64,000 nt of DNA from Escherichia coli (GCF_041248615.1 NZ_CP158427.1); one strand, 5' to 3'; shown: positions 36,701 to 39,700, counted from the stretch's first letter. Numbers are program-made.

Positions 36701-39700
36701 CATTTATGACTGTAAGCATTGTTTCACCTTCCGCAGCGGCTGTAAAGCCCCGCCGTCATCCCCGTTTCAGACGCGAAGACATCCCCACGCCGGAAATTGA
36801 CCCCGTGTTGAAAGCCTTCGGGCGACACATAGCCCGGAGTTTTCACCGGGGGCGTGGTGTACACATCCCCGCCATGAAAAACACGGCTTTCGGGCAGGTG
36901 CTCCGCACACTCGAACTGAAACGCGCTTTTAACTGATGAGGTGAGCCGCCCCGCGAGGGGCGGCAACAGACGGAAGGAGAACATTTTATGACATTAGCAG
37001 CAATCACCATGACCGCCCCGGAAGCCGCCAGCCCTGTGCAGATGTACCGCGCGACCTACTCACCGGATGACAACAAACTGCGCCTGTATGCCGTGTCACG
37101 TCTTGACCCGGAGACGTATAAAAAAGTGCATGATGCTGGTTTTCGCTGGGCACCAAAACAGGCGCTGTTTGTCGCGCCAGCCTGGACACCGGGCCGGGAA
37201 GACGTGCTCCTCTCACTTGCCGGAGAGATTGAGGATGAAGACAGCACGCTCGCTGAACGTCAGGAAGCACGGGCGGAGCGGTTTACCGGATACAGCGGAA
37301 AGCGGGCCAGTGAATCCGCACAGGCACTTGATGAAGTGGAAAGACTGGCCGCGATGATCCCGCCCGGTCAGCCCATTCTTGTGGGGCATCACAGCGAACG
37401 CCGCGCCCGTCGTGATGCGCAGCGTATTGAAAACGGCATGAAACGTGCCGTGATGCTCTTTGAACGTGCGGAATACTGGGAAGAGCGGGCGCGGTCGGCA
37501 CTGCTTCACGCGAAGTATAAAGAACGTCCGGACGTTCGCTGGCGTCGTATCAAAAAAATCGAAGCTGATTTGCGCAAGGCTGAAAAGACCATCGCGCAGT
37601 CGCAGAAATATCTGACGATGTGGCGGGCTGAATCGCTGGATCTGAATATGGCAAAACTCATCAGCAGTCATGACCATATCAGCGCCTGTTTCCCGCTGGA
37701 TACGTATCCGCGCCCGGCAGAAAAAAGCCAGTATGAAGGGAGCCGGTCGTTATGGTCGGCCCTGGATGATGACATCATCACCACGGAGCAGGCCCGCGAA
37801 ATTGCGATCCGCTGTCATGAACGGCAGATTCAGCATCAGCAACGCTGGGTTAACCACTATCAGAACCGCCTGATCTATGAGCGTGCCATGCTGGACGAAA
37901 GCGGCGGCGTGGTTACCCGGACACAGGATTTTGAGCCGGGCGGACAGGTTTTCAGCCGGGGCGAGTGGCTGACCATCATCCGCGTGAACAAAAGCAACGG
38001 GGCGGTGAGTTCAGTCACAACGCCGAATTACAGTTTTCTCGGGTACAGCGGCACGATGAAAGTGACGCCCGATCGCATCACGGACTACAAAGCACCATCG
38101 GCAGAAGAGGCTGCCATCGCCAGCCAGGCCGCGAAGCGTCCGCCGGTAGTCAACTATCCGGGGGAAGGTTTCCGGGAAATGACAAAGGCACAGTGGGCCG
38201 CCCTGCCCCGGGACTGTAAGGCCGTGCGCAGTGTGGCAGAAGCAGAAGACCACGGGGCATACCGCTACCGCCGCACAATGGACAATAATTTCCGCCTGGT
38301 GAATGTGTATATCACCGACATGAAAATCACGGAAATCCCACAGAAATAAGGTATATCCCCCCGGGAAATCCCCGGGGGATGACGGAGATAATGACATGCA
38401 CAGTCAGTTAAGAGAACGTATCCGGCTGATGCGCGCAAGGCTGGATAACGCCGCGCCGGTTGCTGAAATCCGGGCTGAATCTCAGCTTTTTGTGACTCCT
38501 GCCCCGGTCTGTGATCGCCTGGTGACGCTGGCGGAAATCAGCAACCGTGATCACATTCTGGAACCCTCTGCCGGCACCGGGGCCATACTGCGGGCGATTC
38601 GGGATACCGCGCCGGAGGCCATGTGTGATGCGGTGGAGATTAACAGCGGGCTGGTCCGGTATCTGCGGGAAAATTTTAACGGTGTCAGGGTACAGTGTGG
38701 CGACTTCATGGAATGGCAGCCGGTGCAGTATTACAGCCGGATCATTATGAATCCGCCGTTCAGTCACGGGCAGGATATCCGGCATATCCTGCGGGCTTTT
38801 TCCCTGTTGCGTCCGGGGGGCGTGCTGGTTGCCGTCTGTCTCAACGGGCCGCGCCAGCAGGAGAAGCTGTTACCGTTTTCTGACGTCCGCGAGGAGCTGC
38901 CGCGCGGCACGTTTGCTTATACCGATGTCCCGACGATGATTATTCGTTTGCGTGCCTGATGACACAGGGCTGGCGGGAGGATAAATGCCCGTCTGTCCGC
39001 ACCGGGAAAAGACCGCGCGCCGGTGGCGCTGAAAGGGGCCGCGCTCACGCGCCGCCCCTTTCATTACGCGGACGTTCTGATGGGGGCTTCTGTCTTTTCA
39101 GACCTGTCATTTGTCTGTTACTGATGATGTTGTTGTTCCTGCTACTGCTACTGCTACTGCTACTGCTCTTCTTTTTCCTGCCGCTCTGATTCTGACTACT
39201 GCAGTGTTGTCCTGTCTGCCGGGCGCACCTTCGGCTCCCGGCTGCCTGGCGGCATCCGGTCGTCAGGCCCGACTCCGACAGGCAGCTGCTGGCGCACCCG
39301 CCAGTCTCCGCCGAACCCGCTGGCGCGGTTTCGGGCTGTCGCTACGGTCCGATGCGTGAAAACCCCGGGCTTGCAGCGACCGTTCCGGTCGCGCCGCCTC
39401 TGTCGCGCCGTGGCCTGCGCTCCAGGCATCCCGGCAAAAAGACGCCGGGATGTAAGGCGCAACGCCGTTTCGCAAACCGCGCTTCACGTCGTTGCGGCGG
39501 GTCCCTGCCCGTTGTTGTGTCCGGTGCCATTCACCTGTTTAAGCCCCTGTCGCCGGGGGCTGATACAGCCACAACCTGCCGCACCTGTCCAGGGTAAATG
39601 AACAGCCCACAAAATTTTTTACCCAAAACCCGGTAAAAAATTTTGCGTTCTGCCCAGGACAGGTGCGTCAGGCCGTGGCAGTGATGCCCCATGCGGCGAA

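Follow-up and report, generated by a model that had tools for sequence, protein, structure and literature searches.

A perfect array of the hexanucleotide CTGCTA lies at the left border of a single-stranded-DNA promoter module upstream of the plasmid gene ssb, in the 64,000-nucleotide stretch of Escherichia coli DNA analysed here (NZ_CP158427.1; hereafter the window). The array differs in number of units from plasmid to plasmid, is inherited at a common length within clonal sets, and shows neither coding constraint nor structure of its own. It is probably a non-coding, near-neutral variable-number tandem repeat (VNTR) driven by replication slippage. Judging from the anatomy of the region, its length most likely has no effect on ssb.

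Tandem Repeats Finder and direct reading both gave 4.8 perfect copies (period 6, 100% matches, consensus CTGCTA) at 39139–39167, so that the run of about five units which the first-pass annotation had noted before the ssb-proximal repeat is real. Its score of 58 is the highest among the 23 arrays of the window. From the window's base composition, about 9e-10 period-6 self-matches of 23 positions would be expected in 64 kb, and the tract is therefore not a product of chance. With short head-to-tail units it falls within the 1–9 bp range of microsatellites. The interval given originally, 39111–39185, is wider and includes sequence of low complexity to either side, GATGATGTTGTTGTTC before the tract and CTCTTCTTTTTCC after it. 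One ATG of the left flank is absent in some lineages, and the right flank CTCTTCTTTTTCCTGCCGCTCTG is also found, in diverged form, at the two other copies of the repeat that starts there. Read on the transferred minus strand, the tract is (TAGCAG)n. Neither (CTGCTA)10 nor (TAGCAG)10 folded better than shuffled sequences; the tract is thus unstructured as single-stranded DNA on both strands, and a hairpin-forming repeat was ruled out as the cause of its instability. An Rfam scan of 34–49 kb returned sok, FinP and the traJ 5' UTR only, with no match at the tract. An iteron or centromere-like protein-binding array was also rejected, on the grounds that the unit has only 6 nt and that the number of units (n) ranges from 1 to 16, with n = 1 in 11 of 110 metagenome copies.

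The window corresponds to the leading region of a conjugative plasmid of the F-like type, with FinP and the traJ 5' UTR at 48.2 kb and sok at 44.0 kb. The motif GTGGGGTGTGGTGCTTTT, which we take to be the nic motif of an F-type oriT, occurs on the minus strand. By this token the minus strand is the one transferred, and it serves as template for the leading genes on the plus strand. A direct repeat of about 640 nt is present in three copies (Table 1), the second of which begins at 39170, immediately after the tract. Positions 39361–39840 are 94% identical to the F sequence immediately upstream of ssb (Frpo2) and 90% identical to that upstream of ygeA (Frpo1). In F, early expression of the leading genes requires Frpo2 and Frpo1, which are single-stranded-DNA promoters (PMC9849209), and similar repeats have been described in IncI plasmids (PMC3817090, PMC12672017).

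Table 1. Features at and around the CTGCTA tract; positions are counted from the first nucleotide of the window.
Feature	Position	Strand	Remarks
Direct-repeat copy 1 (module 1)	35848–36489	+	Left border without microsatellite
Class I SAM-dependent methyltransferase gene, 187 aa	38396–38959	+	Last gene of the upstream operon
GC-rich hairpin, 3' of methyltransferase gene	39031–39062	+	13 of 14 stem pairs; loop TCAC
Left flank GATGATGTTGTTGTTC	39123–39138		Trinucleotide-like low complexity
CTGCTA microsatellite, variable-number repeat	39139–39167		Perfect, 4.8 copies
Right flank CTCTTCTTTTTCCTGCCGCTCTG	39168–39190		Pyrimidine-rich; start of repeat copy 2
Direct-repeat copy 2 (module 2), Frpo-type (class 1) ssDNA promoter module upstream of ssb	39170–39810	+	
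Long imperfect hairpin, Frpo2-like promoter structure	39460–39782	-	Predicted fold of transferred strand
Plasmid ssb gene	39829–40356	+	Shine-Dalgarno AAGGAG at 39816–39821
Direct-repeat copy 3 (module 3), corresponding to Frpo1 of F	44566–45206	+	Left border without microsatellite
oriT nic-site motif GTGGGGTGTGGTGCTTTT (presumed F-type)	47341–47358	-	Motif match

The predicted fold of the transferred strand over module 2 is strong (841 nt, z = -10.7), and an inverted self-match at 39497–39716 lies inside its hairpin region. A promoter and terminator scan of 38300–40000 found no sigma-70-like promoter, and a looser search of the hairpin region for -35 and -10 boxes was uninformative; the module is called Frpo2-like from its homology to F and its fold, not from recognised promoter boxes. 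The order in the downstream direction is methyltransferase gene, GC-rich hairpin, tract, module 2 and ssb. The GC-rich hairpin has no U-tract on either strand and was not listed as terminator-like, from which it follows that it is not a canonical intrinsic terminator and that the upstream operon has no obvious one. The tract is unpaired and outside the long hairpin; it precedes the hairpin by about 290–330 nt and the start codon of ssb by 661 nt. Elsewhere in the window, the transferred strand also forms a long hairpin over 34160–34600 (minus strand, z = -5.9), upstream of an antirestriction (KlcA-like) gene at 34586–35011. This hairpin probably represents a single-stranded-DNA promoter of class 2 (ssp2), an element reported in PMC12672017 and in the 2026 bioRxiv conversion-delay preprint. 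Two further arrays, G/T-rich and of period 11 with units such as GTTTTTTTGG and TTGTTTTTGGG, lie at 31491–31638 on the plus strand, flanked by a minus-strand ORF of 320 aa and an ORF of 227 aa; the corresponding part of F carries an annotated DNA methylase gene of 684 nt, the size of the 227-aa ORF.

When isolates were compared, as the first-pass annotation had proposed, the tract was not invariant. Direct reading of the window and 15 plasmid loci gave n = 1, 2, 2, 4, 4, 5, 7, 8, 9, 9, 9, 9, 10, 13, 15 and 16. The units of these 16 sequences are pure except for an ATGCTA first unit in locus L009 and a 2-nt deletion in locus L015. Plasmid pKFu019_2 (L001) carries 10 units against 4 in the window, although the two sequences are 99.98% identical across 12.9 kb. 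Among the 60 best plasmid matches to a 3.1-kb query (at least 99.2% identity), the spans of the matches imply n = 3–15, and sampled records of PLSDB and of complete E. coli genomes gave spans equivalent to n = 1–16. About 190 records were sampled in all out of more than 5,000 matching in PLSDB and RefSeq, and the four span-inferred values that were checked against sequence were all correct. Metagenomes were scanned with an exact match to the left anchor plus first unit, which retrieved 120 stretches, 110 of them with both flanks. These 110 copies hold 11 alleles (n = 1–13, mode 4–5, Nei diversity 0.88), and long alleles are probably under-sampled by short-read assembly. Many lengths occur within every flank haplotype, and copies with identical flanks of 150 + 150 nt differ in n (for instance 3, 4, 4, 5, 6 and 7). 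Clonal sets, on the other hand, hold one common span, as in 13 plasmids all at 3115, which indicates that tract length is inherited and is not assembly noise. Whole-unit changes between conserved flanks, together with heritable length, are the marks of a VNTR, and the six-base steps between related plasmids are those expected of the slipped-strand mispairing invoked in the first-pass annotation, a mechanism to which the pattern points. One metagenome contig, Ga0209547_100164 (L026), has two tract junctions, at its positions 793 and 10203, 9.4 kb apart; their flanks differ, and they carry n = 4 and n = 2.

Sequencing or assembly artefacts could be suspected behind such differences, as repeats are prone to mis-assembly and several metagenome contigs stop at the tract. 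This origin is extremely improbable and was rejected. Lengths differ by exact multiples of 6 nt, reaching 72 nt, in units that are pure save for the two loci named above; clonal plasmid sets from the same studies agree in tract length; and variation is seen in finished RefSeq plasmids and, independently, in metagenomes. Moreover, control queries of equal size, placed on the left borders of modules 1 and 3, gave spans that are nearly invariant across plasmids.

The borders of the other modules suggest how the tract may have arisen. Those of copies 1 (35848) and 3 (44566) are T/C-rich and without tandem units, which bears out the first-pass annotation on this point. The copy 1 border has the same left anchor, CTGATGTTGTTGTTC, followed by a 1.5-unit proto-repeat, CTACTGCTC; in some plasmids the n = 1 allele of the tract is the proto-repeat CTGCTACTGCTC, to which CTACTGCTC is the paralogous counterpart at module 1. 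A short proto-repeat of the form CTGCTACTGCTC would have been the starting point, from which replication slippage would expand and contract the array by whole 6-nt units. It is speculation that stalled complementary-strand synthesis at the adjacent module causes the slippage; the roadblock known in F, ssp2, is a different element. All three modules start in pyrimidine-rich sequence (65–76% C+T; 35780–35880, 39090–39230 and 44480–44620, plus strand), and the three borders are among the most pyrimidine-rich 78-nt windows of the 64 kb. The Frpo2 border of plasmid F has a different CT-rich low-complexity run (TTCCTCTTC-like). Comparison of 39190–39360 between the window and loci L007–L009, L015 and L016 (plasmid F) revealed two alternative, unrelated left halves of the module right after the tract, a window type and an F-like type, which rejoin at about 39360. 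The existence of two alternative downstream sequences places the tract at a mosaic recombination junction. Plasmid F (57.8–58.6 kb) also lacks the segment with a small ORF, a DUF3560 gene and the methyltransferase gene that separates copies 1 and 2 in the window, an absence consistent with deletion via recombination between the repeats.

A coding function for the tract was considered in two forms, a poly-leucine micropeptide, MMLLF(LL)nLLFFFLPL, of at least 14 aa depending on n (21 aa in the window), and a hydrophobic tail at the C-terminus of a 76-aa protein that would start at an ATG overlapping the stop codon of the methyltransferase gene (TGATG). An ORF is indeed open over 38959–39189, the six-base steps keep its frame, and PGAP calls the 76-aa-type ORF, or the mini-ORF alone, in many plasmids. 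A point against a non-coding view is that the ATG of the mini-ORF is kept in 16 of 16 directly read sequences and its TGA in most copies surveyed. The short, leucine-rich ORF with rare CTA codons and a very hydrophobic product also resembles leucine-codon leader peptides, as in the leu operon attenuator, and the small hydrophobic toxins of type I (Ibs, Hok), a likeness that we take as a lead only; unlike these, the mini-ORF has no Shine-Dalgarno sequence, varies in length, and has frameshift and stop-loss variants. A coding role is nonetheless very unlikely. The 21 substitution columns upstream of the tract are distributed 7/8/6 over the three codon positions, with no third-position excess. 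An indel of 1 nt, seen in 4 of 14 sequences, alters the upstream, N-terminal frame; the TGATG overlap is present, yet the frame that follows it lacks conservation. Locus L015 has its 2-nt deletion within the tract itself, the ORF of L011 is marked 'frameshifted' by PGAP, and 7 of the 110 metagenome copies have lost the stop codon. Inspection of the sequence before ATGATG found no Shine-Dalgarno sequence, and the ORFs over the tract had no match in Pfam or NCBIfam. The locus thus shows neither a conserved frame and synonymous bias nor a ribosome-binding site or known family. RefSeq/PGAP places two overlapping 'hypothetical protein' CDSs here in many plasmids, 38959–39189 and 39111–39359 (plus strand), one poly-Leu and the other Ala-Thr, whose lengths follow repeat number; one record has a 43-aa poly-Leu mini-ORF as its sole annotated ORF. 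That the second frame is annotated as often as the first is typical of spurious calls in stop-poor sequence, which is what these annotations look like, and Leu, Phe, Pro and Ser codons arise anyway from a pyrimidine-rich strand.

The first-pass annotation had further suggested that tract length might alter expression of ssb, a claim for which we found no support given the distances to the start codon and to the hairpin and the lack of a sigma-70-like promoter within 38300–40000. In its more developed form this proposal, that tract length tunes expression of the ssb-psiB operon, is unlikely, although a route can be drawn. The RNA past the methyltransferase stop, pyrimidine-rich and with C in excess of G, could act as a Rho-loading (rut-like) region that shields module 2 from read-through, and repeat number would then alter the length and efficiency of that region. 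In favour of such a route are the highly variable tract length, the lack of a U-tract terminator 3' of the methyltransferase gene, a C/G ratio of 1.3–1.8 over 39090–39250, pyrimidine-rich borders at three of three modules, and the different CT-rich run that F carries at the same kind of border. Primary sites of Rho, however, prefer YC dimers. The unit CTGCTA contains none, and windows over the tract have 7–9 YC dinucleotides per 78 nt, fewer than the 13–18 of the flanks. Alleles with n = 1 are common (11 of 110 copies), there is no promoter whose spacing the tract could change, and in F it is the Frpo2 hairpin itself on which early expression of ssb depends (PMC9849209). The tract also differs from phase-variable repeats, in that a 6-nt unit shifts no frame and that it lies neither within nor next to promoter elements.

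A role of the incoming strand was considered as well, in which the purine-rich, unstructured (TAGCAG)n would be a linker or landing pad for SSB, RecA or priming factors, and its length between two folded elements would affect ssDNA processing or complementary-strand synthesis. The transferred strand is the minus strand, and the tract is unstructured between a hairpin and a module that are both strongly folded. In F, structured ssDNA promoters can stall complementary-strand synthesis (bioRxiv 10.64898/2026.01.09.698686), which likewise counts for this possibility. Against it, the roadblock mapped in F is ssp2 and not Frpo2, alleles with n = 1 are frequent, and plasmid F is entirely without this junction. 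We know of no binding motif for (TAGCAG)n, and a linker function appears highly improbable. Slightly less remote, but still quite doubtful, is the broader idea that the pyrimidine-rich, unstructured left borders of Frpo-type modules are insulators between successive leading-region operons; they could work as Rho-loading regions on read-through RNA or as protein-loading gaps on the incoming single strand. If this were true, the repeat would make the border of module 2 a hypervariable insulator, and lineages would differ heritably in leak or induction of ssb-psiB.

The preferred explanation thus remains a near-neutral VNTR. Because the tract lies outside the hairpin, upstream of the starts of Frpo-driven transcripts and outside any constrained frame, changes in its length most likely leave ssb unaffected. 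As the methyltransferase gene lacks a canonical intrinsic terminator, transcripts that read through probably include the tract, and the pyrimidine-rich border as a whole, which the repeat lengthens, may have a role that would speak against neutrality.

Among known systems the tract is closest in behaviour to 6-bp VNTRs such as the loci used for MLVA on the chromosome of E. coli O157:H7, which likewise have a short perfect unit, whole-unit changes, many alleles and clonal stability. The rates reported for the 6-bp O157 loci, about 4e-5 to 1.8e-3 per generation (PMC3777172), would be compatible by analogy with the pattern of stability within clones and diversity between lineages. Unlike those chromosomal loci, the tract belongs to the leading region of plasmids, of the IncF group and in some cases of IncI. 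No earlier description of it as a typing locus was found in the literature on leading-region repeats and pO157 MLVA loci, with the possible exception of Vhec5; identity with Vhec7 was ruled out by the 7-bp unit of the latter. The tract abuts one of three copies of a class 1 ssDNA promoter of the Frpo/ssi type known from F and ColIb-P9 (Masai and Arai 1997; PMC9849209; PMC12672017), but differs from such promoters in lying outside the hairpin and upstream of the promoter. It shares with the contingency loci of Neisseria and Haemophilus a slippage-prone repeat upstream of a gene, and departs from them in having a unit that is a multiple of three and in lying away from -35/-10 elements, 661 nt from the gene.

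The tract is therefore probably an ordinary, neutral variable repeat, a further example of a well-known type of feature. Its presence accounts for the spurious 'hypothetical protein' annotations of variable length in RefSeq and for contig breaks at the site in short-read assemblies. Were its length to affect early ssb/psiB expression, the tract would allow plasmid establishment to be tuned heritably, but no finding points in that direction. It changes faster than point substitutions accumulate and is carried by thousands of resistance and virulence plasmids, of IncF and in some cases IncI type. As a possible typing marker it could separate near-identical plasmids in outbreak tracing, which would give it a modest practical value.
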